Made by a program: the position numbers and the translations under genes. From an uncultured Eubacteriales bacterium (GTDB lineage Bacteria > Bacillota > Clostridia > Oscillospirales > CAG-382), in assembly GCA_900551295.1 (NCBI GenBank), contig URVJ01000007.1:20560-84559 (forward strand): DNA of 64,000 bases, in the 5' to 3' direction. Under the pieces are notes generated by a model. The model saw nothing but the letters and a program-made list of their open reading frames with translations, was not told where the DNA came from and did no database searches. Each line of letters opens with the position of its first letter. Within the stretch, counting starts at the first letter, position 1. Of the stretch, positions 9,674 to 58,807 are shown in pieces.

Positions 9674-9775
9674 TGCCGGAAAGTCTTGCTTTGTCACACA
9701 GAAAAGCAAAAAAATAACGGTACACGAAAAACTAAATTCCGTATACCGCTTTTGTATTTAAATTTGCAATTTTGT

Positions 9776-11044: not shown

Positions 11045-11125
11045 CGCCGCACACTCCTTTCATCAGCTTTTACACTTTTATAGACGTAAGTAAAACCAAA
11101 AAGTTCCGGTTTTTCTTAATAAATC

Positions 11126-11740: not shown

Positions 11741-11919
11741 ATATAAGCACCTCCGTTCTTTTATAATATCATTATTAAGTATATCACGTTTCAAATACTT
11801 TTTCAAGTGTAAAATGCAACAATCCGCAAACGATTTGAAAATATTGCGTTGCGCAACGCTTACAAAATCAAAAGACGCAGCAGCAATTTTTAAGAATGCC
11901 GCAGCGCCTCGTTTTTTGG

Positions 11920-12507: not shown

Positions 12508-12512
12508 ATAAC

Positions 12513-13652: not shown

Positions 13653-13682
13653 TGATTTTTTCGCCTTTCAGTATATGATGAT

Positions 13683-15836: not shown

Positions 15837-16091
15837 AAGTTCTCTCTCCTCCTTTGCACGTAAATAGAGCGCATATATTCTGTCGTAATGTGCGCATAAA
15901 TACCTTATTATAAAATCTAAATTTAATTCTACCACATTTTTCGTCTTTTGTAAACAAGTTTTGAGTTATTTGATTAAATTCGCCTTTTTGGTATTATTTT
16001 TCGGTAAAATAAGCTTTTGATAAAAATATTTCTTGTAAAATAAGCAAAAGTATTGTATAATAGGGTAAATAATTATCGGGAGTAACTGTAA

Positions 16092-17114
16092 ATGAGTAAA
16101 GATATAGGAATAGATCTCGGAACGGCAAATGTGCTTGTATATGTAAAGGGCAAGGGAGTAGTGCTTGAAGAGCCGTCCGTCGTTGCCGTTGAAAAGGAAA
16201 GCGGCAAAGTGCTTAAAGTCGGAAAAGAGGCGCAGGCGCTCTTGGGACGAACACCGGGAAATATTCTCGCGGTAAAACCGCTTGAGGACGGCGTTATCTC
16301 GCAGTACGACGTCACCATGAAAATGCTTAAATACTTTATCAGAAAGTCCGTCGGCACGGGATTTTTCAAACCGCGCGTAATGATATGCGTTCCGAGCGGC
16401 ATAACCGAGGTTGAGGAAAGGGCAGTGTGTGATGCGGCTCTCGCGGCAGGCGCAAAAAAGACTTATCTTATAGAAGAACCTTTTGCCGCAGCGATAGGCG
16501 CAGGTATCGACGTATCTAAACCCAACGGCAATATGGTCGTTGATATAGGCGGAGGTACGACCGACGCCGCCGTAATATCCTACGGAGATATAGTGACCAG
16601 CGAGTCCGTAAAGGCTGCCGGAAATAAGCTTGACGAAGCGATTGCAAAGTATATACGCTATAAGTATAATGTGCTTATCGGCGAGAGAACGGCGGAGGAT
16701 ATAAAGAAACAGATAGGTTCTGCGTTTCCGCTCGACAAAGAATACGTAATGGACGTAAAGGGCAGAGATCTCAAAGAAGGACTGCCCAAGATGATAACCA
16801 TAAATTCGGCTGAGGTAAGAGAGGCTGCGGAACCCGTCGTAAAGCAGATAGTTACGGCTGTTCTTCACGTAATAGAACGAACTCCGCCCGAACTTGTCGG
16901 CGACGTTGCCGCAAACGGAATAGTGCTTACGGGCGCCGGAAGCCTGCTTTACGGAATTGACCGCCTTATAGAGCATGCAACCGGAATACGCACATATATT
17001 GCGGAAAATCCGTCTGCCTGCGTTGTTCTCGGAACGGGAAGATACCTCGACAATCTTCAGGTTCTGCCCGAAGGGACGATAAATATTTCGCGCCGCAGAC
17101 AGCAAAGACTTTAA
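16092..17114 (+). CDS. mreB: Rod-shape-determining actin homologue, MreB/Mbl family
   Basis: MSKDIGIDLGTANVLVYVKGKGVVLEEPSVVAV..., MVVDIGGGTTD, VLTGAGSLL. Confidence 0.9.
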   Translation: MSKDIGIDLGTANVLVYVKGKGVVLEEPSVVAVEKESGKVLKVGKEAQALLGRTPGNILAVKPLEDGVISQYDVTMKMLKYFIRKSVGTGFFKPRVMICVPSGITEVEERAVCDAALAAGAKKTYLIEEPFAAAIGAGIDVSKPNGNMVVDIGGGTTDAAVISYGDIVTSESVKAAGNKLDEAIAKYIRYKYNVLIGERTAEDIKKQIGSAFPLDKEYVMDVKGRDLKEGLPKMITINSAEVREAAEPVVKQIVTAVLHVIERTPPELVGDVAANGIVLTGAGSLLYGIDRLIEHATGIRTYIAENPSACVVLGTGRYLDNLQVLPEGTINISRRRQQRL

Positions 17115-17138
17115 AATGCGCGAATAAATAAAAATTGA

Positions 17139-17160
17139 CTGCGGCTTTTACGCCGCAGCC
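17139..17160. terminator. Hairpin between the convergent mreB and isomerase genes (probably bidirectional)
   Basis: CTGCGGC-ttttac-GCCGCAG. The T-rich run lies on the minus-strand side (tcaatttttattt) and is weaker on the plus side. Confidence 0.5.
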
Positions 17161-17190
17161 TTGCATATATGATTTTCGGCTTTGCCGTTT

Positions 17191-17967
17191 TCAGCAAAGT
17201 CCCAGGGAATGGAGATAGTCAAAGCTCTTCTTTAAGCACTCGAACTGATCTTCGCCGTAGCAGCTGTCCTGTTCGACGAACGCATATTCCGTGCCGTTGT
17301 CAACGGCAGCCTTGATGATGGACTCAAAGTCAAGCAGTCCGCTTCCTACCGGTGCAAAGCGTTTCTCGCCGTCGGGTAGTATTACCATGTCTTTTAAATG
17401 TATGCAGGGAATTCTGCCGGATAATTTCTTTAACCATTCGACAGGATCATGACCGGCAGCCTTTACCCAGTAAGTGTCAAGCGTAAAGCCCATTTCGTCG
17501 GGAGCAAAGGTTTTCATGAGATATTCCATTGCGGTTTCGCCGTCAATTTCTATGAATTCCTTGTCGTGGTTGTGGTACATGAAGTAGCAGCCGTTGTCTT
17601 TCATGATTTTTGCGGCGTTAAGATAATTTTTTGTAAAATCGTACCATATGTCTTTGGATTTGCTTAGATGCTCGCTGAAAATTCCGGGCATGGAGCCGAT
17701 GCCTATGTATTTGCAGCCGAAAATTTTGTGTTCTTTTATGACGTTCTCGGTGTCGGTGCTTATTCTTCCCATATCGTAGTGGGTAAGATCGCAGGTAAGG
17801 CCGTTTTTGTCAAGTTCTTCTTTTAACCATTCCGGCTCGTATTTGCAGGTTCCTGAAACCTGAACCGATTTGTATCCTATGTCGGCGATCTTTTTGAGAC
17901 ATTCGGATATGCCTTCCGTGTTTTTTGTAAGATCGTGTACCGTATACATCTGTGCGCCGATTTTCAT
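17191..17967 (-). CDS. Sugar phosphate isomerase/epimerase (xylose-isomerase-like TIM barrel)
   Basis: 258 aa. The overall pattern (MKIGAQMYTV..., HNHDKEF, HLKD, EQD) is typical of the AP_endonuc_2 family. Confidence 0.7.
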   Translation of the reverse strand: MKIGAQMYTVHDLTKNTEGISECLKKIADIGYKSVQVSGTCKYEPEWLKEELDKNGLTCDLTHYDMGRISTDTENVIKEHKIFGCKYIGIGSMPGIFSEHLSKSKDIWYDFTKNYLNAAKIMKDNGCYFMYHNHDKEFIEIDGETAMEYLMKTFAPDEMGFTLDTYWVKAAGHDPVEWLKKLSGRIPCIHLKDMVILPDGEKRFAPVGSGLLDFESIIKAAVDNGTEYAFVEQDSCYGEDQFECLKKSFDYLHSLGLC

Positions 17968-18139
17968 AAATAAACCCTCTTTTCATCAGAATATGTTTTT
18001 TGTATTTATTGTCGGTTGACATTCTCTCTGTTTGCTATTATAATATTATTGAAAATATTTTTCAATGGATTATTTTAAGATAAACTATGCATATTTGTGT
18101 TTTTAAACTGTTTTTAAAAAATAATTCGGAGGTTTGCAT

Positions 18140-18889
18140 ATGCCCGACGTAAGATATTTTATACATTACCTTGCCAAAAGAAGCTGCATTGCGGAAAAGA
18201 TAGACGATTTTGAGCCGCTTACATACTGCGACCTTACTTTTGTAATAGACGGAAGCCTGAATTACCGCATTAACGGTCAGAGCTTTACGCTCGGTCCGGG
18301 GGACGCAATGTTTTGTCCCGAGGGCGGAATAAGAAAGCGTGAAAAGGGCACGGAACGGACAAACTATATATCTATAAACTTTCGCTGCTCAGGTTCAGAC
18401 GTTCCGCTCATGCCGTACTGTATGCGAGATATATACTGTCACGATATAGATTATTGCGTTTCAAAACTGCTTGGAATATACTATCAGAACGGAAAATATA
18501 CGCTGAAAAAGTGCAGTTGTCTGATTGAATATGTGCTGTTTGAGATGCTTGAACGGCTTTCCGACGAGGAGGAAAACAGGCACGTCGCGCTCATGAAACG
18601 TTATATTTCCTATAATTGGTACAGAAAAATAAGCCTCGATGAAATTTCGGAGGCTGCGCATCTGAGCCGTTCGTACTCGTCCGCCGTGTTCAAAAAGACG
18701 GTCGGAATGTCTATAAGCGACTATATTATAGATATACGTATAAGCAGAGCGTGTGAAATGCTGAGATTTTCCGACGAGTCGGTTGCGGATATTGCCGATA
18801 AGACGGGATTTTGCGATATTTTCTATTTCAGCAAGACCTTTAAACGCATAAAAGGTATCTCTCCGCTTCAGTATCGCTCAATGAAATGA
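18140..18889 (+). CDS. AraC-family transcriptional regulator (cupin N-domain plus HTH)
   Basis: C-terminal AraC HTH (ISEAAHLSRSYSSAVFKKTVGMSISDYIIDIRISRACEMLRFSDESVADIADKTGFCDIFYFSKTFKRIKGISPLQYR). It is divergent from the isomerase gene. ATG at 18140 follows GGAGG. Confidence 0.85.
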   Translation: MPDVRYFIHYLAKRSCIAEKIDDFEPLTYCDLTFVIDGSLNYRINGQSFTLGPGDAMFCPEGGIRKREKGTERTNYISINFRCSGSDVPLMPYCMRDIYCHDIDYCVSKLLGIYYQNGKYTLKKCSCLIEYVLFEMLERLSDEEENRHVALMKRYISYNWYRKISLDEISEAAHLSRSYSSAVFKKTVGMSISDYIIDIRISRACEMLRFSDESVADIADKTGFCDIFYFSKTFKRIKGISPLQYRSMK

Positions 18890-18911
18890 TGTAAAAACGA
18901 AAGGAATGTAA

Positions 18912-20762
18912 ATGAAGAAAAAGTTTTTCCTTCTGCAAAAAAATAAAGACGGCTTTACACGAACGCAAAGCATAATATATGATTTTTTTATGCCGCTGAT
19001 GCTTGTAATATCAGCCGTGATATGCGGAGTTCTGTCGCTGATGCTTGCATACGGGCAGTATGAAAGAGTGCTGTTTTACAGCTATTTTTCAAATCCGTTT
19101 ATATTGTTTCTCAACATTCTGCCGACGGTGCTTATGTCGCTTGTTTTGTGGGGACTTTGCGGCAGGGCTTGGATCGCAAACCTTGTTTCGTCCGTCATAA
19201 CTCTCGGATTTACGTCGGCAGACTACTATCTTCTCAAATTCCGCGACGATCCGCTGATGTTTTCCGACGTAATGTATGTAAGAGAGGCGGCGCAGATTAA
19301 TTCAAGATACGATATGACTCCCGGTAAGCGTATGATATTTGCATATGTGATTTGTATTGTTCTTACCGTACTTCTGTTTTTCTTTGCACGCAAGAAGCCC
19401 AAAGCCGGAATACGGATACCCGTGACGGTTCTTGCTGTGCTCTTGGCATTTGTTCCGGTCAAAAATCTTTATACTGACGCCTATATTTATGATGTAAAAA
19501 CGGCGAACTACGAATATATAAACCACTGGTCGTCAACGCAGAACTTTGTTTCAAAGGGCTTTGTATATCCGTTTCTTCACAGCGTATCCGACGCATTTCC
19601 GAAAGCTCCCGACGGTTATTCCGAAAAGGCGGCAAAAGAAATACTTTCCGCTTATACCGATTCGGATATACCCGAAGAAAAAAGAGTCGATATAATCGCG
19701 GTAATGCTTGAAGCATATAACGATCTTACGCTGCTCGGCGTTGACGGAATAGACCAAAGCGTTTATAAAGCGTACCACGATCTGCTTGACGAGTGCTATC
19801 ACGGACGCCTTGTGACAAATATCTTTGCCGGAGGCACCATCGATACCGAACGCGCGTTTTTAACGGGATATTCGACGCTCGGCAATTTCAGACACGATAC
19901 AAATTCTTACGTGCGCTATCTTGAATCGCAGAATTATTACGCCGACGGAAGCCACCCGTGCTACCGCTGGTTCTACAACCGCCTTAACGTGAATAATTAT
20001 CTCGGCTTCAAGAACTATTACTTCTACGAGGACTATTACAGCACGCTGTCGTCTACGATTGCCGTGGATTCGATAGTATTCCCGGAAATAAAGAATTTCT
20101 ATGACCGCGAAAAGGATTCGGGACAGAATTATTTCGGGTTTCATGTAACTTATCAGGGACACGGCCCGTACTCGGCTGAAAGTCTCGACTGGGTATCTCA
20201 GCCGGTGTTTTCAAACCCGGCAGTCGGAGAGGCTTCGTCTGTCATACTAAATAACTATCTCGGCTCGGTATCAAATACGGCGGAAAATATAGTAAACCTT
20301 GTAAATGAGCTGAAAAAAGAGGATAAACCCGTTTTGTTCGTATTCTTCGGCGACCATAAACCGTGGCTCGGAGACGGTAACAGCGTTTATAACGAACTCG
20401 GAGTTGATCTTGACGTGTCAGAGTACGACGGATTTATGAATTACTATTCCACTGAATACGCAATTTTTGCAAACGACGCCGCAAAAGAGCTTCTCGGCAA
20501 TGATTTTGTCGGAACGGGACCGACAATAAGCCCGTGCTTTTTAATGAATGAACTTTTTTCTGAATGCTCGTATGAGGGAAACGCGTATATGAAGTTTACA
20601 AACTACGTCAGAAGTTTGCTTCCCGTAATAAACAAAAACGGATTTATCGACGAGAACGGAAATTTCTACACCGACGAAGACGATCTTGATGAACAGCATA
20701 AAGAGGCTTTGCACAAGTTCAGAATTGTGGAAAAATACGTGTCGGATAACTTCTCAAAGTAA
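18912..20762 (+). CDS. LTA-synthase-family / sulfatase-like membrane protein
   Basis: Five N-terminal TM segments followed by an extracytoplasmic sulfatase-like domain (VMLEAYNDL, FFGDHKPW). Confidence 0.7.
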   Translation: MKKKFFLLQKNKDGFTRTQSIIYDFFMPLMLVISAVICGVLSLMLAYGQYERVLFYSYFSNPFILFLNILPTVLMSLVLWGLCGRAWIANLVSSVITLGFTSADYYLLKFRDDPLMFSDVMYVREAAQINSRYDMTPGKRMIFAYVICIVLTVLLFFFARKKPKAGIRIPVTVLAVLLAFVPVKNLYTDAYIYDVKTANYEYINHWSSTQNFVSKGFVYPFLHSVSDAFPKAPDGYSEKAAKEILSAYTDSDIPEEKRVDIIAVMLEAYNDLTLLGVDGIDQSVYKAYHDLLDECYHGRLVTNIFAGGTIDTERAFLTGYSTLGNFRHDTNSYVRYLESQNYYADGSHPCYRWFYNRLNVNNYLGFKNYYFYEDYYSTLSSTIAVDSIVFPEIKNFYDREKDSGQNYFGFHVTYQGHGPYSAESLDWVSQPVFSNPAVGEASSVILNNYLGSVSNTAENIVNLVNELKKEDKPVLFVFFGDHKPWLGDGNSVYNELGVDLDVSEYDGFMNYYSTEYAIFANDAAKELLGNDFVGTGPTISPCFLMNELFSECSYEGNAYMKFTNYVRSLLPVINKNGFIDENGNFYTDEDDLDEQHKEALHKFRIVEKYVSDNFSK

Positions 20763-43563: not shown

Positions 43564-44505
43564 ATGAAAAGAATTACAGCAAATAAAGTCTCGGAATTTA
43601 GGGACATTTTGATTACGGATGAAAAATCTCCGGCAACGGTAGAGAAGTATATACGCGATATAAGAACCTTTGCGGCGTGGCTCGGAGAACGCTGCGTTGA
43701 TAAGCATACGGGTCTCGAATATAAGGCTTATCTTGTCAGGAAATATATGCCGTCAAGCGTAAATTCCGTGCTGTCATCACTGAATATCTTTTTTGACTAT
43801 AACGAGTGGTACGGCTGCAAGGTCAAGCCGCTTAAAATACAGAAACAAATATTTGCGTCAAAGGATAAGGAACTTTCAAAAGCAGAGTACGAAAGATTGC
43901 TTGATGCGGCAAGATCCGGAAAAAATGAAAGGCTGTATCTTCTTATTATCTGTTCAATGGGAATACGCGTAAGTGAGGTGCGGTTTGTGACGGCAGAGGC
44001 GGTTAAAAACGGTGTTGCATCAATAAATTGCAAAGGCAAGCTCACTTTTGAAGGATTTTCGGATTACGAACATATTGCGGAAATGACGGTGCTGCCGACG
44101 AGCTTTGACGAAGAGAAAATGGCAATTGTAATCGGACTCAAGAATGCCGCAGCTTTTGATTCGGACATATGCACACTTGAATTCAGAATCAATGAAAATG
44201 CGCAGGAAAGAGTATACAGCATAAATGCAGATACAATTGTAAAGCTTAGTTCTGCGGTTGTTACGTCGTCTGTAAATCCGGGAAAGGTAACGGTTCGTAT
44301 GCAGAAGCTCGGAGATATAGACGGAAATGATACTGTTGATATAGATGACGCAGTGTTGCTGTTCAGACATAGTATGGCTTCCTGAGCTGTATCCGATAAG
44401 CTATGCGGGAAATACTGACTATAACCATGACGGCAATGTCGATATTGATGATGCGGTTATGCTCTTCAGATACAGTATGCTTCCGGAACTGTATCCGATT
44501 GATTA
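43564..44505 (+). pseudogene. Chimeric pseudogene: N-terminal about 158 aa of a tyrosine recombinase fused to the C-terminal fragment of a dockerin-bearing protein; the dockerin is frameshifted
   Basis: N-part MKRITANKVSEFRDILITDEKSPATVEKYIRDIRTFAAWL...GIRVSEVRFVTAEAVKNGVASINCKGK carries the SAM-like N-domain and the first catalytic Arg region, but the His-x-x-Arg and Tyr regions are absent. From about 44038 the sequence is unrelated and ends in GDIDGNDTVDIDDAVLLFRHSM (dockerin repeat 1). The stop at 44383-44385 is followed, in the +1 frame, by PELYPISYAGNTDYNHDGNVDIDDAVMLFRYSMLPELYPID*, which is dockerin repeat 2. Comparing atggcttcctgagctgtatccg with atgcttccggaactgtatccg points to a 1-nt insertion. 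Confidence 0.65.
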
Positions 44506-44544
44506 AAAACAAAATCAGATTATTCTAATGTTGAATAACAGAGT

Positions 44545-44588
44545 CGTACAGACAATTAAATTTGTTTGTACGGCTTTTTTCTTTTTTA
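44545..44588 (+). terminator. Rho-independent terminator after the dockerin remnant
   Basis: CGTACAGACA-attaaatt-TGTTTGTACG followed by GCTTTTTTCTTTTTT. Confidence 0.6.
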
Positions 44589-44917
44589 GGCTCTTAAATT
44601 TTTTATCCGGCATACAAATTTCTTTGTTTATCCTGTTATTTCGGGTTTTTCTGACTGTCGTTTTTTGACTAATTATGTAAAACGCTGTCGAATAGATGTA
44701 TATTTTAAAGATTTTATATTAAGAATGTGTACGAAAAAAGGTTTTCTTGAATATTGTATCAATTTATGTTACTTTTAGTATATAAAATTTAATCGGAAAG
44801 AGGTAAGTAAATGTTATTATCACTATGAAGGTAAGGCTTTTTCCGCACCGAGCGTGACGGTGGCGTAACAACCGGCGCATAGGTATAAATTGAATAATAT
44901 TTCAAGGAGTAGAAAAA

Positions 44918-48565: not shown

Positions 48566-51500
48566 ATGAAGCGTATTCTTAATATAACAGTATTGATGGT
48601 TATTGCAATACTGATAACGATGTCCGTATATTCTCAAACACAGGATGAAATAATTGCCGAAGCAGTGTGCGGACAAAGAATAGCACAATATGATGTTAAG
48701 CTGAATTCTCCGTTTGTAAAGGAACGCAGAGGCGAAAGCGAAACTGTGAATCCCGAAACCGGGAACGTTTCATATACGCTCTCTTTGTTTAACTTGAATG
48801 CACGAACTTTTGACGAAACATTATCTTTGACATATAACAGTGCATCAGCAAAGCTTAAACAGGAATCATATTGCAATACAGGTGTTGCTTTACACAATAT
48901 CAATGAAAATTTCACAGACAAAGAGATTGCAAAAGCAAATTTTGCAGTTGGCTGGAAATTCAATATCCCTTTTGTTGAAAGTATGTATAATACAACATTT
49001 GTTCATATGCCGGACGGGACAGTATATTTGGGAGATGCATCAAGCGATACAGGGCTTAGCGGTTATATGCTTAAAAATGTAACTTTCAAAAAAAGCGATT
49101 CAGGTTATCTTTTGAATTATCTTGACGGTACAGTGTATAAATTTGATACTGATGGCTTTTTAACAGAAAAATCCGATCGTAACGATAATTATGTACAGTA
49201 CAATTGGAATAAATCGTTAACTCCTTATGTTCTTGAAAAAATCACATCATGTACAGGACAAAGTATCAGTTTTAAATATTTAGATTCCGCCGTTGAGATT
49301 ACGTTAAACGGCAGAAAAGTTACTTTGGGAGTAGAAAAGCAATCTGATGCCGACAAAATTCCTTTTCTGACATATTTTATTGATGCCGTAAACAGAAAAA
49401 CATCCTTTGAATACTCTCAAAAGACAATAGATTATGCACTTGTTTTGGATTCGGAAAAAATGGATATAAACTATTATCCGTTGACATCAATAATATATAA
49501 TACCGGACTTAAAACAATTTACAAATACGATACTGCAAAAAAATTCTCCGGAAACGGATATATGTCATATCTAAAGCTTTCGGAAAGATATGATATCAGT
49601 AATTTGGAAATGGTTAACCGTCAACAGTATTTCTATAACGGCGAGCCTGACGGATACCCGAAATATTCTTCCGGATATATTCCGTCAGATTATAAGTATT
49701 CTGCTGTTATTATCAATCAAGATAGCAAACGTGAATTGATCTCATATAACAGTGTGCATGATATTTCCGAAAGGGAAATATCTGTCGGAAATAAACCTCA
49801 AAGCAGATTGTCGTATAAATATGACAAAAGAAACAGAATGCCTGTGCAAATAGTGTCTGAAATGTTCGGAAATTCTGGGAACGACAGAGCAGTATACTCT
49901 GAATTTGTGTATAACGATCGCGGCGAACTTTTGTCATATGACACATATGATAATATTTCTGACAAAGGTAAACAGAAAAAGGAATACCTATACAGTAACT
50001 TTTACGGAATAAATACTTACTTAAAATATAAAACAGACAAAGCAACAACCGTTGAAGTAAAATCCGATACTGACAGCAACGGAAAGAACATTGAAAAAAC
50101 GCAAATATTCGTAAACGGAAACCTTGTCAAAACTATACGTTACAAATATGATGATTTCGGAAACAACGTATATATAAAAAAACAGACAGATAATGACACC
50201 TATAAAACAGAAAAGTTTGTTTTTACCGATAAGACAGGATATGCTTATCCAGAACAGCACATAATATGCGGTGTTGAGGATACCGACGGCGATACATTTG
50301 ATGTATATGAGGAATTTGAATATGATTTTTTCGGAAATATAATTTCATATACAGATGCCTGCGAAGGAAAGACAATATATGAATATAATAATCTCGGAAA
50401 TCCGGTAAAGCAAATACTTCCTAACGGAGGAATAAGAACTGTTTTATATGACTATAATAAGAATACATTAAAAACATCGGATGCACTCGGAAATACACTT
50501 TTATATATGTATGACCCATTAGGAAGACTTGTTTTTGTTAAAGACGGGAAAGGAAATATTCTTACTCAAAAAGAATATGCACCGACGGGATTACTTGAAT
50601 GTGAGACTGACGCTGTCGGAACAAGTTTTCACTACACATATGACGGATTTAACCGTGTAAGCGGCATATCTGCAAAGGATATGACCGGAAAAATTCTTTC
50701 TTTTACAAGCTATTCTTATGATGAAGCATATATTTTTGACGGGAAAACTTATTCAAGGTTTGAAACATCTCTAAAGGGAGAAACCGGAGAATATAAAACG
50801 GCATATCTTTTCGATTTTCTCGGACGTCAGCGTTTGTGCGAGAACGGAAATGGTGAAAACAAACGCATAACAACATATGAATACGATTATGCCGGAAACA
50901 ATATCCGGACGGTTTTACCTGACGGCAGCATTACCGATTGCACATATAATGCTTTCGGAAATATGCTTTCAAGCACGCGTGACGGTGTATCGGAATACTA
51001 TACGTATGACCTTTTGGGCAATATGAAAAGCCATACTGACGGTGAAGGTAATACCGTAACATCTGATTATAATTCTCTCGGATTGAATCTCAAAAATACG
51101 CTCCCCTATAACGGCGGCAATTCTTTTTCCGTAACAAAAAATTACTATGATCCTTGCGGAAGAGTTACAAAACGCACAGACGCAGAGGGAAATTCAAAAA
51201 AGTATTTTTATGATAACAGCGGCAATCTTGTCAGCTGTTTATACGGTGACGGTATTACAACCTATGAATATGACGCTGAAAATCGTATTATTTCCATGAG
51301 CACAGGGAAAGCCGGTAATCTCCATACTCAGCATTATGAGTATGACAGTTTCGGCAATCTTGTCAAGAGTACGGATGAAATGGGATTTTCTCAAAGCTAT
51401 ACGTATGATTTGAACGGCAATGTGTTAAGCTGTATTGACAAGAACGGAAATATCGTATATAATACATACGACGGATTAAACAGAATAATCCGCACGTCAA

Positions 51501-53458
51501 ATTCGCTTGATAATACTTGTTTCGATTATACATACGACAGCGCAGGAAAACTTGTACGTGTAAACAATACCGAATATAAATATAATACTTTCGGTGAACT
51601 TATAAGCCAAAAGGAAGGCAATATTGAGCAAAAGTATTCTTACAACAGCCTCGGCTTGAGAACAGAATACAGCGTTGAAAACTGCGGAGTAGTGCAAATG
51701 AATCAAAACTACACATATGACGCATTCGGCAGACTTTCCGCTGTTACTTCGCCTCTCGGCAGACAGAGCTACACTTATGACAGAGCCGGACGTCTTGTAA
51801 GCACATACGGCGACACTTCAAAAATCGGAACGCAGTATTCATATTTTCCGTCAGGAAATATTGAGTCGCAAATTCAGATTGTCGGAGGAAAAATCACCGA
51901 CGAGGTCAGATATGAATATGACCGCAACGGCTCAAGAACTCTCGAAAAAAGCTTTGACGGCGAAAAGAGGTATACCTACGACAGCAGAAACCGTTTGCAT
52001 GAGGTTATAGACGGCGGAATTCTTTCGGTGTACAGCTATGACGATTTCGGAAATATCAGCGCGGTAAATTATTTTTCCGAAAACGTAAGCTCATCGACAA
52101 AATATGTCTATGACGCAAACAACAGACTTACGGAGAGCTTTGAGGACAATTTAAGAACGGAATATACATATGATAAACAGGGAAACCTAATCTGCCGAAA
52201 AAACGACATCGGCAGAACCGATTATTTCTATAACGGATTCAATAAAATGACAGGAGTTTCCGGTGAAAACCTTACTGCGGAATACACATATGATTACAGC
52301 GGTCTGAGGACGTCAAAGACTGTAAACGGCGTATTTACGCAGTTAGTGAACGACGGACAGAATGTTTCGGCACAGTATGTTGACGGCAGAGTGAATTGTT
52401 TTTACAGAGGAATAAGCCTGATAGGGTATACCGATTCCGACAGCAATGCAAACTTTTATCAGTTCAACGCACACGGAGACGTAATTTCCGTGCTTGACTG
52501 TTTCGGAAACACGGTACATAGCTACGACTATAACGAGTTCGGCAAGCAGAAAGAAAGCGCAGAAAATCTGTTTCTTCCCCAGTACGGCATGAAAGCCGAT
52601 ACAAATCCTTTCCGCTATTGCGGGGAATATTTTGATGAAGAAACCGGTTTTGTCTATCTTAGGGCAAGGTACTATTCTCCGGATATCGGCAGGTTTGTTT
52701 CGGAAGATCCGATTAAGGACGGAAATAACTGGTATGTTTATTGCGGGAATAACTCAATTGTTTTTTACGACCCATATGGCTACTGGCCATCATTCAAAGA
52801 CGTAACACGGGATGTCGCGAGGTTTGTTGTTTCTAATCCTTTGGCAGTTAATGCAACTCAAAGTGGCAAATTTAAAGACTTTTTTGATATAGTTGGCTTT
52901 AAATGGGATTCAAAAAGCAAAACATATCATGCTAAAACCAATGCGTGGCAGCAAATTGGCGGATATAATGATTTCTACGATGTTATATTTGATTATGCTA
53001 CTGATATGGATAACGCAAAATTTGATTTTGAAGATTCATCGGGCAGAAAATATATTTTATGGGCATGGAAAGGTGATTATTTAAATTTGGGTGCCGGAGC
53101 AGAGTTGGGTATTTATTCTAATGAGTCAGGAATAGCCGGAAAAATTGATGTTAAAAGTCCACACAATGATATTTGGCTTGTTGATACAAACCTCGCTATG
53201 AAAATGACATTGACATTAAAAGATAAAAAAGGAAACACATTAATTGAATATGAGCCCAGTGAAAAACAATGGTGGATTACAGGTTTTGATCCATATAAAC
53301 AAAATGTCGAAGCAAAAGATTTGATAGCCGAATATTCAGTGCTTTTTACCAACGAAAGTATGTATCAGAGTTTCTATAATAAATATGGTGTTGGCGAAAA
53401 CAAAGATTCAAGGTGGCAATTTGATTCAACAACTATGACGGCTATTTTCTCGTTTTAA
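48566..53458 (+). CDS. RHS/YD-repeat polymorphic toxin with DUF4474-like C-terminal domain
   Basis: N-terminal signal/anchor MKRILNITVLMVIAILITMSVYS. Dozens of YD repeats (YxYDxxGN). The RHS-associated core is NPFRYCGEYFDEETGFVYLRARYYSPDIGRFVSEDPI...YVYCGNNSIVFYDPYGY, with the DPYGY motif at 52769-52783. The about 223-aa tail (AWQQIGGYNDFYDV...KYILWAWKGDYLNLGAGAELGIYS...KQWWITGFDP) resembles DUF4474 from memory. Confidence 0.93.
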   Translation: MKRILNITVLMVIAILITMSVYSQTQDEIIAEAVCGQRIAQYDVKLNSPFVKERRGESETVNPETGNVSYTLSLFNLNARTFDETLSLTYNSASAKLKQESYCNTGVALHNINENFTDKEIAKANFAVGWKFNIPFVESMYNTTFVHMPDGTVYLGDASSDTGLSGYMLKNVTFKKSDSGYLLNYLDGTVYKFDTDGFLTEKSDRNDNYVQYNWNKSLTPYVLEKITSCTGQSISFKYLDSAVEITLNGRKVTLGVEKQSDADKIPFLTYFIDAVNRKTSFEYSQKTIDYALVLDSEKMDINYYPLTSIIYNTGLKTIYKYDTAKKFSGNGYMSYLKLSERYDISNLEMVNRQQYFYNGEPDGYPKYSSGYIPSDYKYSAVIINQDSKRELISYNSVHDISEREISVGNKPQSRLSYKYDKRNRMPVQIVSEMFGNSGNDRAVYSEFVYNDRGELLSYDTYDNISDKGKQKKEYLYSNFYGINTYLKYKTDKATTVEVKSDTDSNGKNIEKTQIFVNGNLVKTIRYKYDDFGNNVYIKKQTDNDTYKTEKFVFTDKTGYAYPEQHIICGVEDTDGDTFDVYEEFEYDFFGNIISYTDACEGKTIYEYNNLGNPVKQILPNGGIRTVLYDYNKNTLKTSDALGNTLLYMYDPLGRLVFVKDGKGNILTQKEYAPTGLLECETDAVGTSFHYTYDGFNRVSGISAKDMTGKILSFTSYSYDEAYIFDGKTYSRFETSLKGETGEYKTAYLFDFLGRQRLCENGNGENKRITTYEYDYAGNNIRTVLPDGSITDCTYNAFGNMLSSTRDGVSEYYTYDLLGNMKSHTDGEGNTVTSDYNSLGLNLKNTLPYNGGNSFSVTKNYYDPCGRVTKRTDAEGNSKKYFYDNSGNLVSCLYGDGITTYEYDAENRIISMSTGKAGNLHTQHYEYDSFGNLVKSTDEMGFSQSYTYDLNGNVLSCIDKNGNIVYNTYDGLNRIIRTSNSLDNTCFDYTYDSAGKLVRVNNTEYKYNTFGELISQKEGNIEQKYSYNSLGLRTEYSVENCGVVQMNQNYTYDAFGRLSAVTSPLGRQSYTYDRAGRLVSTYGDTSKIGTQYSYFPSGNIESQIQIVGGKITDEVRYEYDRNGSRTLEKSFDGEKRYTYDSRNRLHEVIDGGILSVYSYDDFGNISAVNYFSENVSSSTKYVYDANNRLTESFEDNLRTEYTYDKQGNLICRKNDIGRTDYFYNGFNKMTGVSGENLTAEYTYDYSGLRTSKTVNGVFTQLVNDGQNVSAQYVDGRVNCFYRGISLIGYTDSDSNANFYQFNAHGDVISVLDCFGNTVHSYDYNEFGKQKESAENLFLPQYGMKADTNPFRYCGEYFDEETGFVYLRARYYSPDIGRFVSEDPIKDGNNWYVYCGNNSIVFYDPYGYWPSFKDVTRDVARFVVSNPLAVNATQSGKFKDFFDIVGFKWDSKSKTYHAKTNAWQQIGGYNDFYDVIFDYATDMDNAKFDFEDSSGRKYILWAWKGDYLNLGAGAELGIYSNESGIAGKIDVKSPHNDIWLVDTNLAMKMTLTLKDKKGNTLIEYEPSEKQWWITGFDPYKQNVEAKDLIAEYSVLFTNESMYQSFYNKYGVGENKDSRWQFDSTTMTAIFSF
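51435..51463 (+). promoter_or_regulatory. Perfect consensus sigma-70 promoter motif inside the rhs CDS
   Basis: TTGACA-agaacggaaatatcgta-TATAAT (N17), coding for IDKNGNIVYN. It is homologous to the promoter motifs in repeats R1 and R2. Activity is untested. Confidence 0.35.
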
Positions 53459-53470
53459 GAGGTGCTTAAA

Positions 53471-53977
53471 ATGAAAAGTTGTAAAAGTATATTGTTATTA
53501 GTTTTTTGCCTTTTATCTTTGACTTTTTGCAAACAAAAAGAGGAGGTTTTTATGCGCGAAGATGAATATGTAGATTATATTATTAGTGAAACGATTTGTT
53601 CGCTTAACGAACACGATACAGAAAGATTAAAAAACTTGTTTTCCAATTCGGTTATAAAAACTGTTGACGATTTAAACACAAAATGTGGTATGTTTAGTGA
53701 TTTCATCGGGTTTACAATAGTATCACACGAGTATGATGGCACACTTGCTTCTGATATGTCTGTCAAAAATGGTGAAAAACGTAATATGATAAGATTTTCG
53801 TTTGAAATTGTAACAGGTGAAAGTGAGAAGTATACTATTTTTGTGATTTGTTACAATATAGATACAGCTAATACAGACAATGTAGGAGTATATATGATGG
53901 AAATTGCCCATTCCGACTATGACGAATATGATTCATGGCAAGACCGAATTGTACCTGGAATAAGTATTCTTGAATGA
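53471..53977 (+). CDS. Small secreted or lipoprotein-like protein, candidate cognate immunity protein (DUF5104-like)
   Basis: Starts 13 nt after the rhs stop, with a GAGGTG RBS. N-terminal hydrophobic signal MKSCKSILLLVFCLLSLTFC (non-canonical lipobox). Pattern ...RLKNLFSNSVIKTVDDLNTKCGMFSDFIGFTIVSHEYDG... resembles DUF5104 from memory. Confidence 0.55.
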   Translation: MKSCKSILLLVFCLLSLTFCKQKEEVFMREDEYVDYIISETICSLNEHDTERLKNLFSNSVIKTVDDLNTKCGMFSDFIGFTIVSHEYDGTLASDMSVKNGEKRNMIRFSFEIVTGESEKYTIFVICYNIDTANTDNVGVYMMEIAHSDYDEYDSWQDRIVPGISILE

Positions 53978-54066
53978 TTGTTTTTATGGTGAATAGTGTG
54001 TGTTGTTTATGGCTACGATGAATATGTCAATGTCATTTCTGAAGTAAATGTTGTAAACTTTAACAT

Positions 54067-54825
54067 TTGCTTCGACTATTAGCGTCGCGGATAAGCCGGC
54101 TGTTCCCACGTACCAACGATTGCCGCAGGCAACCGTACTGCTACGCCGGATATGAGTACCTTGAAAATGCAGACTTGTATGACCTTAATGCAAGGTATTA
54201 CGACGCCAAGATCGCAAGATTTCTGTCGCCCGATCCTTACTATGACCTTGGTAACAGGGTAATAGGACTGCATGAGATCAATGTACCTACTGCTTGGTCT
54301 ATTATTCAGGCGAATGCTCTGTATGTGTATTGCGGGAATAGTCCGATTGTCTTTTTTGATTGTACCGGTTTTAATACTAGTTCTGTATTTCAAAATGCAG
54401 ATGGAACATATTCTCTGTATGATAATGATAGATTCGGCAATAAAAATGCTTGGCATGAACAGATTTTTTCTGTTTCACTTTCCAGTCCAAGTTGGGATTT
54501 GAAAAATGGTTCGGTTGGACTTGGAAGCGTTGAGGGTAATGCATTTACCGGTGGTTGTGAATGGAAACACGTAGACTTATCTTTGTTTGATTTTGGTCAT
54601 GCCGAGGTTGGATTAGAAATAGAGGATAGTGCAATTGATCTTGGGGCACAAGCAAGTGTATGGAGTCCATCAGTCTCAGTAACTGTATTAGGGGTTAAGA
54701 CAGAGGCGGGAATAGAGGTCGGGGCAATCGGCTTGAGTGCAAAAGGTTCTTGGAATGTTAGTGCAAAGGGTCTTGAAATCTATATAGCACTTGGTGTTGG
54801 TGTAACATTGTCTATTTCATGGTAG
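54067..54825 (+). CDS. Orphan RHS C-terminal cassette: degenerate core end plus Gly/Ala/Val-rich C-terminal domain
   Basis: PYCYAGYEYLENADLYDLNARYYDAKIARFLSPDPY...LYVYCGNSPIVFFDCTGF aligns with the core end of the main rhs, with DCTG in place of DPYG. A YD-repeat relic (VVYGYDEYVNVISE) lies upstream at about 54000-54045 in another frame with stops. There is no credible RBS or ATG, so it may be silent unless recombined. Confidence 0.55.
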   Translation: MLRLLASRISRLFPRTNDCRRQPYCYAGYEYLENADLYDLNARYYDAKIARFLSPDPYYDLGNRVIGLHEINVPTAWSIIQANALYVYCGNSPIVFFDCTGFNTSSVFQNADGTYSLYDNDRFGNKNAWHEQIFSVSLSSPSWDLKNGSVGLGSVEGNAFTGGCEWKHVDLSLFDFGHAEVGLEIEDSAIDLGAQASVWSPSVSVTVLGVKTEAGIEVGAIGLSAKGSWNVSAKGLEIYIALGVGVTLSISW

Positions 54826-54862
54826 TTAATTTGTTTAAGAAAGTTGGAGGTTATATAAAATT

Positions 54863-55258
54863 ATGAAACAAAATGCAGTAACAAAGTGGTTGATATTTTT
54901 CTCATATAAAACAAAGTATGTTAAAATCGCCTTGCCAGTATTTTATTTGCTTTTTATGTTGTGTAATTTTGTTACACATACTAATGTATCAGACGTTTTT
55001 TATGAGTATGTTAAGATCCTTGTAATATGTCTTATTGCGTGGTTTGGCGTCAGGTTTGTTTTCTGGTTTCAAATAAAGAGTCCGTTTTATAATGAGGTGT
55101 TTTTTAATGCAGCCTCTCTGTTTTTGATGGTTGTGATGCTGTTGGTTGCAATTATTAACATTTTGCTTTTTAGCCCTGCGGCGTTTGTTTTTCTTGTTAT
55201 TCTGCTCTCTGTTGTTGAAGTTCAAAGGTTGAGAAAAGAAAATACATTTGAAAAGTAA
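54863..55258 (+). CDS. Small 4-TM membrane protein, candidate immunity partner of the orphan cassette
   Basis: 131 aa with four hydrophobic helices. RBS TGGAGG 9 nt upstream. It lies immediately 3' of the orphan toxin module. Confidence 0.5.
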   Translation: MKQNAVTKWLIFFSYKTKYVKIALPVFYLLFMLCNFVTHTNVSDVFYEYVKILVICLIAWFGVRFVFWFQIKSPFYNEVFFNAASLFLMVVMLLVAIINILLFSPAAFVFLVILLSVVEVQRLRKENTFEK

Positions 55259-55532
55259 TATTCAGTTAACATTTGACAGTCACAAAACATTAGAAACGAG
55301 CAAGATTCCATGGCAAATGCGGTTATACTAAAACAATAGCCGACGATTTCGCGTTGAAAGTCAGATATAAAAGTCTGCCCCCATGTTTTTGAATTGTGAT
55401 TTGGCAAATGACAGACGGATATGTTTTTGTGTGTGCCGGATTTAATTATAATTGAAATCAGACGTCGGATATTCTTAATCCGAATCAAAGCTTTCTTTGT
55501 TATCCGCATATTTTCGTTTTTCCTGAATTGCC

Positions 55533-55632
55533 GATTTTGTCGAATACTGTCGAAGTGTGCCGAAAAATAAGCGCATTTTTGAACGTCAGTGCGCTGAACT
55601 GTGTTGACACGAACGGAAATATCGTATATAAT
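55533..55632 (+). repeat. Repeat R1 (about 100 bp), decayed rhs YD-repeat segment
   Basis: About 93% identical by hand alignment (about 7 differences in 100 nt) to 57241-57341. Its 3' 60 nt are about 87% identical to rhs 51404-51463. Confidence 0.8.
55604..55632 (+). promoter_or_regulatory. Perfect consensus sigma-70 promoter within R1
   Basis: TTGACA-cgaacggaaatatcgta-TATAAT (N17), about 140 nt upstream of the 55776 ORF. Confidence 0.55.
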
Positions 55633-55775
55633 ACATATAAGGAATTTAACAGAAACTGTGGCGGTATCGGAAGCTGTACAGTGAAAGCTCGGAGTATGTG
55701 CATACCGGAATTGTGGTAAATGAAAACGTAAGCTTTTTCGATCTAAGCAGTTATATTAAAAAGTAGGGGATTTGC

Positions 55776-56390
55776 ATGAAATACTTTATGAATTGTGTAA
55801 TAATACTGATATTTTTGGCTATTTGTTCCTGCGCTTCGAAAGAAGGTTTAAAAGACAATTCGTTAAATTACGAACTTAAGGATAAGACTGAAAATGTTAT
55901 TGATTCTTCACAAAACAAATCTGATGAAATTAATGATAAGTATGTCAACTCAGAGAATACTGAAAGCTCCGGCAGTTTGCAAAATTATGGAAATGAGGAT
56001 GACGAATTCACTGAAGAACATATTGGTCCTGAAGCATGGAATAGAATTGTCATAGCGCTAAACTCCATTTGTTCGGAGATGGATCAAAAAAGATGGGACA
56101 ACATTAATATAAATCACGGGTATTCGGACGAACTTCCTTTTCTTGGTATATATGTAACAGAAGAAGATGAAAAACTTGAACTATATACCATAAAAGGTGA
56201 GGTAAATACTTATATATATTTGATAATTATAGTTGGCTTCAGTGATGAGTTCCCTGACGGCAAGATAGTCAGCACTACTTATGTCGGCGAGGGCGGCAGA
56301 GAATGGCATTATGAGGAGTGCGGTTTTGAAAAAAATGAAATTATTGATGCATACGATCAGGAACTTTGGTTAACGATGTGGTCATATTGA
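55776..56390 (+). CDS. Probable lipoprotein of unknown function (candidate orphan immunity protein)
   Basis: MKYFMNCVIILIFLAICSCASKEG signal with Cys. RBS AGGGGA. AT-rich island context. Confidence 0.55.
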   Translation: MKYFMNCVIILIFLAICSCASKEGLKDNSLNYELKDKTENVIDSSQNKSDEINDKYVNSENTESSGSLQNYGNEDDEFTEEHIGPEAWNRIVIALNSICSEMDQKRWDNININHGYSDELPFLGIYVTEEDEKLELYTIKGEVNTYIYLIIIVGFSDEFPDGKIVSTTYVGEGGREWHYEECGFEKNEIIDAYDQELWLTMWSY

Positions 56391-56584
56391 AAGTGTTTTG
56401 CTTGTGATAAAATTATAAAGCCGTAATTATATGCGGCGCTTGGCGGCAATTTATTACTTACAGGTTTATTTAAGGGAATAGCCGGAGTTTTCCGTGGTGC
56501 TGATTCGGCAGATGATAAAGCTGATATAAGAATAGGCATAACTTGGTATAAATTGGTATAACGATCGGTAAAGGGGGAGTTGAA

Positions 56585-57127
56585 GTGAAGTTGGATAAAA
56601 CAGTGCTGTTCCGTATTTTAAGTATTGCAGCGGTTGCTGTTATCACCCTAAGCGTTTTCTTTGTAATCCGCCTTAACAACAATGATAATATAACATACAG
56701 TAAAATTGTTTCATATGTAAGCGGCAATTATGAGAAGCTCGAAAACTTCCCATATAGTGAAATTGAGAAAATCAAATCTTCAAATGACAGCCCTGAAATA
56801 AAAAAACAAAAGGAAGAAGAAATAATAAAAAGATATCTTGGGGAAAACACCATAGTTACAAGCGTTTATGCTTACAATGAAAACATTTTGCAATTTTATT
56901 GCGGTGGTTCCGGCTTTTTAGACGTAGGAACTTATACAGGATTTTATTTTTCACGCTATGATATGCCTTATGCATTTGAATTTAACACTCTTGAGTTAGT
57001 CGAAATAAGTCCCGGCGTGTTTGAGGGGCAAGATGAAGACGGTGCTCAACAAATACATGGAGGTCATAAAATACGCACGGAAAAAATCCGGGATAAGTGG
57101 TATTACTATATACAGTATTGGTATTGA
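56585..57127 (+). CDS. N-terminally anchored protein of unknown function (candidate orphan immunity protein)
   Basis: GTG start 5 nt after AGGGGGAG. TM anchor ILSIAAVAVITLSVFFVI. 180 aa. Confidence 0.5.
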   Translation: MKLDKTVLFRILSIAAVAVITLSVFFVIRLNNNDNITYSKIVSYVSGNYEKLENFPYSEIEKIKSSNDSPEIKKQKEEEIIKRYLGENTIVTSVYAYNENILQFYCGGSGFLDVGTYTGFYFSRYDMPYAFEFNTLELVEISPGVFEGQDEDGAQQIHGGHKIRTEKIRDKWYYYIQYWY

Positions 57128-57240
57128 TTTCACACCTGCCGTCTTTCAGATTTTATGCCATGCTGTATTTTATAAAGATAGACAAAACTATCGTTGCAGT
57201 AAGCACGGGAATTTTATCTCATTTTTTGGTTTGCACCGGC

Positions 57241-57341
57241 GATTTTTGTCGAATACTGTCAAAGTGTGCCGAAAAATAAACGCGTTTTTGAACGTCAGTG
57301 CGCTGAACCGTGTTGACACGAACGGAAATATAATATATAAT
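57241..57341 (+). repeat. Repeat R2 (about 100 bp), second copy of the rhs-derived repeat
   Basis: See R1. Hand alignment shows one 1-nt indel and six substitutions. Confidence 0.8.
57313..57341 (+). promoter_or_regulatory. Perfect consensus sigma-70 promoter within R2
   Basis: TTGACA-cgaacggaaatataata-TATAAT (N17), 38 nt upstream of the 57379 ATG. Confidence 0.55.
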
Positions 57342-57378
57342 TAATATAGCATTTTAAAGAACATTTGGGTGAGCATAA

Positions 57379-57702
57379 ATGAATTATGATTTTTTTAAAA
57401 AGTGCATAAATACATTATCATGGACTTTGTTTTATCTTGAAATAGTGTTTATCTGGGGTTTTGACCTTTGCATATTTATAAACGGTGCAAATCCCGAACT
57501 GTATTTTAAAACTCAGTTTTTAATACTTGCAGTCCTTGTTATGTACTATTTTCTGAAAAACATTGAACGCTCTTTGGAAGAACCCGATGATGAAACAAAT
57601 CTAAAAATTACACTGCTTTTTATGCTTCAGATTGCTGTTGCCGCAGCGGTCGTGGGATATGCGGTATTTGTACTGAATACAGTGCCGTTCAGAATTCAGT
57701 GA
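57379..57702 (+). CDS. Small 3-TM membrane protein of unknown function
   Basis: 107 aa. RBS GGGTGA. Three hydrophobic helices. Confidence 0.5.
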   Translation: MNYDFFKKCINTLSWTLFYLEIVFIWGFDLCIFINGANPELYFKTQFLILAVLVMYYFLKNIERSLEEPDDETNLKITLLFMLQIAVAAAVVGYAVFVLNTVPFRIQ

Positions 57703-57719
57703 GAAAGTAACAGGTTATT

Positions 57720-58085
57720 ATGAAAAAGCAGAAAAATCAAAACAAACAACTTGAAAAATCGGCAAACCGTATGAAGATTGCCTGCATGGCAACAGCGGCA
57801 GTTTTTGTAGTAATCGGAATAATCTTTGATAACTATATTTTTAGAAGAACAATGTATTTGCAGAATTTCCGCAGTTTTACGAGATATATTTCGATTAATG
57901 CGGTTGTTGTTCTCGGCTGCTTTTCTGATATAATTGTCAGAAGATTTAAAAAGAATAACGGTAAACCCGATATTATTTCCATTATACCGATTGTAATAAC
58001 TGTACTGTTTGTTTTTGTTGCGGTTGCCTATATGAGGTTTGTTATAAATAATATCAATATGTACTTCCCGTATATTTATTCTTAA
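57720..58085 (+). CDS. Small 3-TM membrane protein of unknown function
   Basis: 121 aa. Basic N-terminus followed by three hydrophobic helices. It starts 17 nt after the preceding ORF. Confidence 0.5.
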   Translation: MKKQKNQNKQLEKSANRMKIACMATAAVFVVIGIIFDNYIFRRTMYLQNFRSFTRYISINAVVVLGCFSDIIVRRFKKNNGKPDIISIIPIVITVLFVFVAVAYMRFVINNINMYFPYIYS

Positions 58086-58196
58086 TCGCAGCTTTTAAAT
58101 TTCCACGTATTGATATACAGCGGTAATCCGGGAAGAAAAGCGAATTGCGGAAAAGAGAAGTACATATAATGTAAAAGATTTGCTTAAAGGCAAAGC

Positions 58197-58487
58197 TTAC
58201 TCTTGGGTACAGAAACAGAACTCGATTTTTGCGAAAAAACCGAGAGCATCCTTTAATATTTCATTTGCTTGACGAAGCTCTGCGTTTTCACGTTCAAGCT
58301 CGCATATTTTTGCATTAGTTTAATTTTCTGTCAGAACCACAGTATGCTTTTTTGCATACTTACGAGCTTTTCTCCAATCCGCAAGCGTGTAGTATTGCAA
58401 TCCTAATTGCAGTGCTGCCTTCTTGACTCCTATTTCATCGGACAGTTTTAACGCTTCCTTTTTAAATTCTTTGCTGTACTTTGACAT
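58197..58487 (-). mobile_element. IS3-family transposase orfA remnant (frameshifted, no orfB)
   Basis: Reverse strand reads MSKYSKEFKKEALKLSDEIGVKKAALQLGLQYYTLADWRKARKYAKKHTVVLTEN*. In another frame it continues ...ICELERENAELRQANEILKDALGFFAK..., which is the HTH plus leucine-zipper pattern of IS3/IS911 OrfA. No transposase catalytic ORF follows. Confidence 0.7.
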
Positions 58488-58564
58488 TTTCTTTCCCTCT
58501 TTCTGATTTATTATATCAGATTTTTTGGTGTTTGTCGACTCTATTTATATTATACCACTCCAGT

Positions 58565-58652
58565 TTTGTAAGTGAACATTTCGGTGCAGATGTAGAATGG
58601 TTTGAAAACGAGTATAAAGTGGTTATTACAAAACCCGAAAAAAGTAAAATTT
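58565..58652 (+). pseudogene. 3' fragment of a stalk-domain (copper amine oxidase N-like) gene
   Basis: Reads ...SSFVSEHFGADVEWFENEYKVVITKPEKSKI*, which matches the usual end of stalk domains (FVSEALGAKVxWdxxxktVtIt). No upstream coding continuation. Confidence 0.4.
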
Positions 58653-58753
58653 AAAGCGCTCCGTAAAGAGCGCAGATAAAGGATAAAGCTGTCCCGTGAT
58701 TTGTTCGCAGGGCGGCTTTTTCTTTGGTTTATACACTATATATCAAAAATCAA

Positions 58754-58779
58754 AGCACGGCGTAAAAACCGTGCTTTTT
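58754..58779. terminator. Bidirectional terminator downstream of citrate synthase
   Basis: AGCACGG-cgtaaaaa-CCGTGCT flanked by an A-rich 5' side and a TTTTT 3' side. Confidence 0.7.
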
Positions 58780-58807
58780 CGTATGTGTTTTTTGCAAATG
58801 TCAGCTT

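Follow-up and report, generated by a model that had tools for sequence, protein, structure and literature searches.

A YD-repeat segment of a clostridial rhs gene that matches the SigA promoter consensus and recurs ahead of orphan toxin/immunity modules

Internal promoters of rhs genes appear to have been shown so far only in Salmonella and Escherichia coli. In Salmonella Typhimurium, promoters known as P2 lie in the conserved core just before the PxxxxDPxGL motif, in main and orphan copies and with at least 50 toxins (Starsta et al. 2020, PMC7043789), and the sub-genic promoters of rhsF and rhsG in enterohemorrhagic E. coli are alike (PMC7618764). Here, we report a candidate Gram-positive variant at a different position in the gene, found in an uncultured gut bacterium of the Eubacteriales (Clostridia, CAG-382 lineage). 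The stretch of DNA analyzed, called the window below, comprises 64,000 nt (positions 20,560-84,559 of contig URVJ01000007.1, assembly GCA_900551295.1). It contains an rhs gene in which a segment encoding one YD repeat is also a perfect sigma-70 (SigA) promoter motif, and, downstream, two repeats, R1 and R2, which resemble this segment and precede two cassettes of small genes; R denotes these repeats together with their copies in other strains. The source genome (2.1 Mb in 42 contigs) is labeled G000 and its contigs C; L or G followed by a number denotes the other strains, lineages or loci compared.

The candidate shares with Salmonella P2 a sigma-70-type site on the sense strand of the rhs coding region, present in the main gene and in orphans, ahead of differing toxin/immunity pairs. 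Unlike P2, which belongs to a type VI secretion system effector, it is found in a Gram-positive host and in an Rhs protein exported through Sec. The position also differs: the motif does not immediately precede a PxxxxDPxGL-type core end but lies in a YD repeat about 390 codons upstream (motif at aa 957, core end near aa 1348-1400), and the site at the position equivalent to P2 is listed separately in Table 1. Furthermore, the motif here is a perfect consensus, with an activity predicted from sequence, and in the orphans an internal deletion has moved the candidate promoter next to the core end, several copies being devoid of a toxin.

Two other described systems are relevant. As with the orphan rhs-CT/rhsI modules (Poole et al. 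2011, PMC3150448; Koskiniemi et al. 2014, PMC3967940), pairs of a toxin tip (the C-terminal region, CT) and an immunity gene are found downstream of the main rhs gene. In such modules a patch of core sequence permits recombination with the main gene; a matching module is present in the window at 54067-55258, and R-headed ones in strains L013 and L052. The R-headed orphans differ from the known modules in holding a second, non-adjacent rhs patch; with 85% identity this promoter patch predates the one at the core end (97-99%), and recombination at it would yield no working toxin. The locus also resembles the acquired interbacterial defense (AID) and recombinase-associated rAID-1 arrays of gut Bacteroidales (Ross et al. 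2019, 10.1101/471110) in its arrays of immunity-type genes without toxins, its intergenic repeats and a neighboring tyrosine recombinase. Unlike in rAID-1, the repeat here comes from the coding sequence of the toxin gene itself and carries a consensus promoter, the recombinase is degraded, and protection is only presumed.

The motif TTGACA-N17-TATAAT occurs three times on the plus strand at this locus, within rhs, in R1 and in R2, with 12/12 matches and the same spacing each time, as the initial annotation of the window had reported; the chance expectation from shuffled sequences is 0.01 per window. A fourth perfect copy in the window, at 18016, is unrelated to these three. The rhs copy is in frame and encodes IDKNGNIVYN, again as originally read, at aa 957-966 of a 1630-aa open reading frame (ORF) whose product matches the Pfam families RHS_repeat (8e-64) and DUF4474 (4e-18) and which, with a single tblastn match, is the only such gene in the genome.

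The evidence that the nucleotide motif itself is under selection comes from a codon-based alignment of rhs from five lineages, which share 34-70% of their amino acids; 3306 nucleotide columns are present in all five. Although 23% of these columns are invariant, and 63 of the 1102 third codon positions (5.7%), the entire alignment contains just two invariant runs of 6 nt or longer, namely TTGACA and TATAAT, 17 nt apart. The spacers between the two hexamers differ among the lineages, and the residue ahead of the aspartate varies (I or V), yet the -TT of its codon is constant in all five. Columns that are invariant at the amino-acid level use one codon throughout in 14% of cases (D 5/27, Y 14/65, N 4/15). 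The perfect motif occupies the same codon positions, with different spacers, in homologues sharing 34-58% amino-acid identity (Table 1); it was found in L010/L049, L015-17, L018 and L020/L050, each with its own spacer. This is the pattern that the initial annotation had proposed to look for at the same YD-repeat position of other rhs genes, and it lends indirect support to the suggested rhs-internal transcript, the two promoter hexamers being the only invariant ones. The site is conserved ahead of differing toxin domains, DUF4474 in the window, Ntox44 in L013, AHH in L015 and others in L018 and L050, and it is kept in species that have no R copies. In a sixth lineage (G167/G022), MAFFT and BLASTP agree in placing a perfect motif one YD repeat upstream, where it encodes L-D-N-T-E-T-F-T-Y-N, which suggests relocation or an independent gain.

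A search for further members of the subfamily gave only generic Rhs genes from many phyla, which served as controls. The perfect motif is missing from all 79 generic Rhs ORFs, which add up to 535 kb and encode hundreds of YD repeats, so the motif does not seem to be a by-product of YD repeats as such. At the aligned position it is absent from all of 28 class-level and 6 order-level Rhs genes; two of the 28 carry an in-phase perfect site elsewhere in the gene. Judging from the genes compared, the motif is a trait of one Rhs subfamily, of about 1630 aa with an upstream partner of 1200-1270 aa.

The use of the consensus across the genome bears on R1 and R2 in particular. The genome contains 94 perfect sites, against an expectation of about 0.5 from base composition; 72 are in intergenic DNA, and 54 of those are no more than 300 nt upstream of an ORF on the same strand. 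Among the remainder, 8 are at ORF starts that were probably mis-called, 12 are antisense inside crudely defined ORFs, and only 2 of the 94 lie deep inside an ORF in the sense direction. Perfect consensus sites thus appear to mark real promoters in this genome and, given this distribution, a perfect site that lies in non-coding DNA 38 or 144 nt ahead of a gene is very likely to be one.

The second site deep inside a sense ORF, on the minus strand at C21:18019-18047, maps to around codon 352 in the gene for a 525-aa Phage_Mu_F protein, between the MuF domain (aa 198-304) and a C-terminal extension, in the same codon phase as in rhs (V-D-K...Y-N). The layout of this gene resembles that of MuF polymorphic toxins.

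R1 and R2 agree at 92% of positions in an ungapped comparison of 105 nt and at 89% over 120 nt by BLAST, close to the 93% over about 100 nt first estimated; 56 of the 60 nt that end at the -10 hexamer are the same. Their similarity to rhs had been overestimated: against the rhs segment 51404-51463, put at about 87%, R1 matches at 47 of 60 positions (78%) and R2 at 44 of 60 (73%). The relationship itself is far beyond chance, with rhs 51409-51485 and R1 55578-55654 being 83% identical over 77 nt (BLAST, E = 4e-16), and the repeat, as noted earlier, still translates like rhs, the R1 frame giving LNVSALNCVDTNGNIVYNTYKEFNR. Within R1 the 29-nt promoter segment is better preserved relative to rhs (28/29 identical) than its flanks (36/53; Fisher p = 0.002). 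BLAST found R at no place in the genome outside the rhs locus. The -10 hexamer of R1 ends 144 nt before the ATG at 55776 and that of R2 ends 38 nt before the ATG at 57379, both genes with Shine-Dalgarno-like sequences; these distances bear out the placement of the repeats just upstream of clusters of small exported or membrane proteins. Searches of 60 relatives and of genome contigs for R gave no match, and in metagenomes only contigs of the same species carried it.

Four contigs from other strains of this species are informative about R, among them L008, L013 and L052. L008 contains the same block of R1, cassette, R2 and cassette, with a different toxin tip and immunity gene upstream; comparison with the window places the end of this strain-variable toxin/immunity block about 240 nt upstream of the -35 hexamer of R1. 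In L013, rhs sequence (144 nt, 85% identity) follows on from the R copy; about 1 kb of the shell is then missing, after which come the rhs core end (97%) and the start of a toxin that is cut by an insertion sequence (IS) element. In L052 (ERZ15610583 NODE_110, 5200-20543), both the 1207-aa gene and rhs are absent from the locus, and the island consists of at least 25 small genes, including those for DUF5104, DUF5412 and DUF7336 proteins and one orphan rhs-CT. Of its four R copies, the one at 10728 is joined to the rhs core end (99%) and an orphan toxin of 305 aa, another to what is left of the 3' end of the L008-type toxin, and the remaining two are orthologues of R1 and R2.

Overall, four strains together contribute nine copies of R, with eight different sequences among them. 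The 17-nt spacing and the -10 hexamer are kept in all nine, and one copy has a single mismatch in the -35 hexamer, TTGACG for TTGACA. The 3' junctions of R reflect four different deletions, at about 5, 22, 36 and 112-144 nt after the -10 hexamer. A conserved unit precedes the class-A copies of R in the window, in L008, in L013 and at three places in L052; the hairpin of the intrinsic terminator before R has a folding energy of -19 to -21 kcal/mol (z from -3.6 to -5.0) in L013 and L052 and is degraded in the window (-8.4 kcal/mol).

R modules consisting of an R head, a core end and a CT were found in L013 and L052 only. Since R copies in these strains continue into the core end and orphan toxins, R is best described as a head that supplies orphan toxin/immunity modules with a putative promoter. 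R1 and R2 themselves have neither a core end nor a CT, and so are not such modules; they are, in all likelihood, relics of them from which the toxin parts were deleted, leaving the promoter and immunity-type genes. That the two repeats are decayed rhs fragments, as initially proposed, is borne out by the continuation of R into rhs sequence (85%) and core end (97-99%) in the other strains. The proposal that the segment was retained as a promoter gains support from the spacing and -10 hexamer kept in nine copies, from junctions just past the -10 and from the consensus being a promoter hallmark in this genome. The other proposal, that the repeats are recombination scars of rhs 3'-end exchange, holds loosely; it fails as to the crossover point, because the variable block ends well upstream of R1.

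The 5' 40-65 nt or so of R align with rhs weakly, at about 45% identity and only when gaps are allowed. In this part, TGTCG(A/T)A is repeated three times with a spacing of 10 bp and accompanied by a GCGC dyad; the first of the three units lies 64 nt before GTGTTGACA. The same arrangement of repeats and dyad, at the same 64-nt distance, is present at one other perfect promoter site, on the minus strand at C7:18609-18515, about 2 kb before the start of the window and ahead of a gene for a 623-aa secreted protein of the BspA type with leucine-rich repeats (LRR). Beyond R and this promoter, the triple TGTCG repeat was found nowhere else in the genome. The architecture reads as a shared upstream control site, for which a binding factor is predicted. 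We considered that the 5' part of R might be a recent copy of the LRR-gene promoter and rejected this origin, with 35 of 64 positions identical, mostly within the repeats. Two versions of the second TGTCG unit (55549-55567 in the window) occur, with differences at five neighboring bases, TGTCGAAGTG in the window versus TGTCGCACAC in L008 or TGTCGTACAC in L013, and with flanks that are otherwise nearly identical; the change resembles a small inversion or a conversion patch.

We consider it probable that the YD repeat doubles as a SigA promoter maintained by selection, that R was derived from it as the head of orphan modules, and that R1 and R2 are heads stripped of their toxins. Under this scenario, selection would maintain the DNA encoding aa 957-966 as a sense-strand SigA promoter of consensus sequence, and a constitutive transcript starting near 51470 would cover the last 2 kb of rhs, including the toxin tip, and the immunity gene. 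Such a promoter could uncouple expression of immunity, and possibly also of a C-terminal toxin fragment, from the toxin operon. The promoter-bearing piece of rhs would then have been joined at its 5' side to a regulatory region with three TGTCG repeats and the dyad, and an internal deletion removing about 1 kb would have brought its 3' side up against the rhs core end, yielding the head of a self-transcribed orphan module. Later deletion of the toxin parts would have placed the terminator, upstream repeats and promoter of R1 and R2 directly ahead of genes for small exported or membrane proteins. R heads would confer the same autonomy of expression on orphan modules and on immunity cassettes without toxins.

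Several observations weigh against this scenario. The internal promoter would have to serve immunity from an odd place, about 1.2 kb ahead of the toxin domain and 2 kb ahead of the immunity gene, and a conserved ribosome-binding site for an internal protein product was sought and not found. Among R paralogues, 1 of 12 hexamer columns is variable compared with 16 of 75 in the 75 nt upstream, a difference that is not significant. R elements were seen in one species only, the immunity role of the cassette genes is drawn from their context alone, and the sample of the subfamily is small, five lineages plus one with an offset motif, of which L015 and L018 are 70% identical to each other.

The perfect match could, instead, be a by-product of coding for [IVL]-D-x6-Y-N with the local codon usage, R1 and R2 then being inert relics copied along with the cassettes, which would be transcribed by read-through or from other promoters. 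D and Y are indeed consensus residues of YD repeats, GAC, TAT, AAT and xTT are ordinary codons, and the hexamers of the R paralogues, which are young (89-97% identical), could be intact simply for lack of time. This explanation would leave unaccounted for the invariance of four synonymous positions and of the -TT in the codon of a varying residue, when so few third positions are invariant overall, as well as the status of TTGACA and TATAAT as the sole invariant hexamers and the lack of the perfect motif in the 79 generic Rhs ORFs. Neither would it explain why, out of a 4.9-kb gene, only the motif-bearing piece of 77-144 nt survives in every R copy, or why four independent deletions all end just past the -10. 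We therefore judge a coding by-product to be quite unlikely. A different interpretation accepts the internal promoter but assigns it mainly to the production of a cytoplasmic C-terminal Rhs fragment from Met 1045 (51698-51700), which would form a toxin-antitoxin (addiction) pair with the immunity protein, the supply of immunity being a side effect. Such a pair has been proposed for Salmonella (PMC7043789), and Met 1045, 78 codons past the predicted internal start, is the only methionine column besides the start codon that is conserved in at least four of the five lineages; in the fifth, an ATG follows two codons further on. Met 1045 is not, however, consistently preceded by a Shine-Dalgarno sequence, a start in mid-shell would give a fragment of no known function, and the R1 and R2 cassettes contain no toxin part, all of which makes this interpretation very unlikely in our estimate.

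R and the rhs-internal site might also be recombination sites, used by a tyrosine recombinase, in an integron- or shufflon-like manner, or as patches for swapping rhs 3' ends, with the promoter match being secondary. The content of the island varies widely among strains, repeats stand at cassette boundaries as in the Bacteroidales rAID-1 arrays (10.1101/471110), and a tyrosine-recombinase remnant adjoins the locus (43564-44385), with a homologue abutting an orphan rhs fragment in L015-17. The remnant is, however, a truncated chimera and R is present at only some of the cassette boundaries, unlike in an integron- or rAID-1-like array. The conserved letters are those of a -35 and a -10 with a free spacer and without a dyad core site, and the rhs-internal site is conserved in species without R. 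Recombination between rhs and R, as direct repeats, would delete about 390 codons of the shell and truncate the protein; the boundary of the variable block lies outside R; and the orphans in L015 and L018 begin at other rhs positions. We regard recombination sites as highly improbable. The L015 and L018 orphans start near rhs nt 3675, where we looked for a second conserved internal promoter and found no promoter-like motif.

If the selected promoter is real, one stretch of DNA would be under selection for two readings, a protein repeat and a consensus promoter, as the comparative evidence indicates. It would suggest how Gram-positive polymorphic-toxin loci keep immunity on, apart from a tightly controlled toxin operon, and how orphan immunity genes could remain expressed once their toxins are deleted, which is relevant to competition between gut strains; promoter-type sites of this kind could help annotate immunity islands in metagenomes. 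A broader generalization, which we put forward as unlikely in its full extent, holds that a YD-repeat promoter common to the subfamily was exapted, together with the TGTCG region, as a portable regulated head that builds immunity islands without toxins, and that polymorphic-toxin genes of Firmicutes generally have strong internal promoters before their variable ends. Were this true, the portable head would serve such islands also in strains from which the toxin gene has been lost, and the MuF-type protein, with its internal perfect promoter before the C-terminal extension, would fit the same Firmicute rule.

Table 1. Features of the rhs locus (window coordinates) and the internal motif in other rhs lineages
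Feature	Position	Strand	Description and basis
rhs gene	48566..53458	+	1630 aa; Sec signal, YD-repeat shell, DUF4474 C-terminal toxin domain; ORF, translation, Pfam
rhs segment homologous to R1/R2	51409..51485	+	BLASTN; in L013 the homology extends to the equivalent of ~51552
rhs-internal SigA/sigma-70 motif	51435..51463	+	aTT GAC Aag ... TAT AAT; predicted start near 51470
P2-equivalent position (YFDEETG...)	52632..52660	+	TTGATG-N17-TATCTT, 8/12; hexamers assigned by inference from comparison with the P2 sequence in PMC7043789
DUF5104 protein, presumed immunity partner of the DUF4474 toxin	53462..53977	+	Pfam DUF5104, 2e-18
Orphan rhs core-end/CT fragment plus 131-aa membrane protein	54067-54825; 54863-55258	+	tblastn to rhs core end, ORFs
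Conserved non-coding unit ahead of class-A R copies	55355..55537	+	Terminator hairpin and T-run at its beginning
R1 upstream region	55538..55603	+	Three TGTCG/TGCCG direct repeats at 10-bp spacing, then GCGCA-N14-TGCGC dyad
R1 promoter (putative)	55604..55632	+	TTGACAcgaacggaaatatcgtaTATAAT; predicted start near 55639
Cassette 1	55776..57127	+	204-aa lipoprotein-type protein 55776-56390; 180-aa N-terminally anchored protein 56585-57127
R2	57244..57365	+	TGTCG repeats at 57248-57277, rhs-derived part 3' of them
R2 promoter (putative)	57313..57341	+	TTGACAcgaacggaaatataataTATAAT; predicted start near 57348, 30 nt ahead of ATG 57379
Cassette 2	57379..58085	+	Two small multi-pass membrane proteins: 107 aa 57379-57702, 121 aa 57720-58085
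Motif, lineage L015-17			TTGACAAAAACGGGACAGTGGTTTATAAT
Motif, lineage L018			TTGACAAAAATGGGACAGTAGTATATAAT
Motif, lineage G177			TTGACAGGAACGGCACTGTGCTATATAAT
Motif, lineage G374			TTGACAGAAACCAAAATAAAATATATAAT

The genes of cassettes 1 and 2 are presumed to be orphan immunity genes. Their products matched no Pfam family. Homologues of the 204-aa protein of cassette 1 were detected within the species only, those of the 180-aa protein are in small-gene islands adjoining rhs remnants, and the genes of cassette 2 are conserved in strains L008 and L052. The orphan core-end/CT fragment and its neighboring membrane protein gene, between the DUF5104 gene and R1, do not have an R head. No sigma-70-like site was found in the 340 nt (44578-44917) before the operon of the 1207-aa gene and rhs, a region that follows a strong terminator at 44540-44577. 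A search of 51000-58800 for known RNA families gave nothing apart from a chance snoRNA match.

Some features of the surroundings may also be recorded. The recombinase-like gene that flanks the locus at 43564-44385 is truncated and fused to a dockerin-like tail; its homologue at L015 14454-15074 (47% over 160 aa) lies downstream of an Imm11 gene, where it abuts the orphan rhs fragment. An agr-type quorum-sensing set, comprising a LytTR regulator, a histidine kinase, AgrB and a small peptide, adjoins homologous rhs operons in L015 (18702-21382) and L018 (296-3117), in the latter directly upstream of the partner gene. At the other end of the island, a short ORF on the minus strand (58320-58487) resembles the helix-turn-helix part of an IS3-family transposase OrfA, and citrate synthase lies beyond it.

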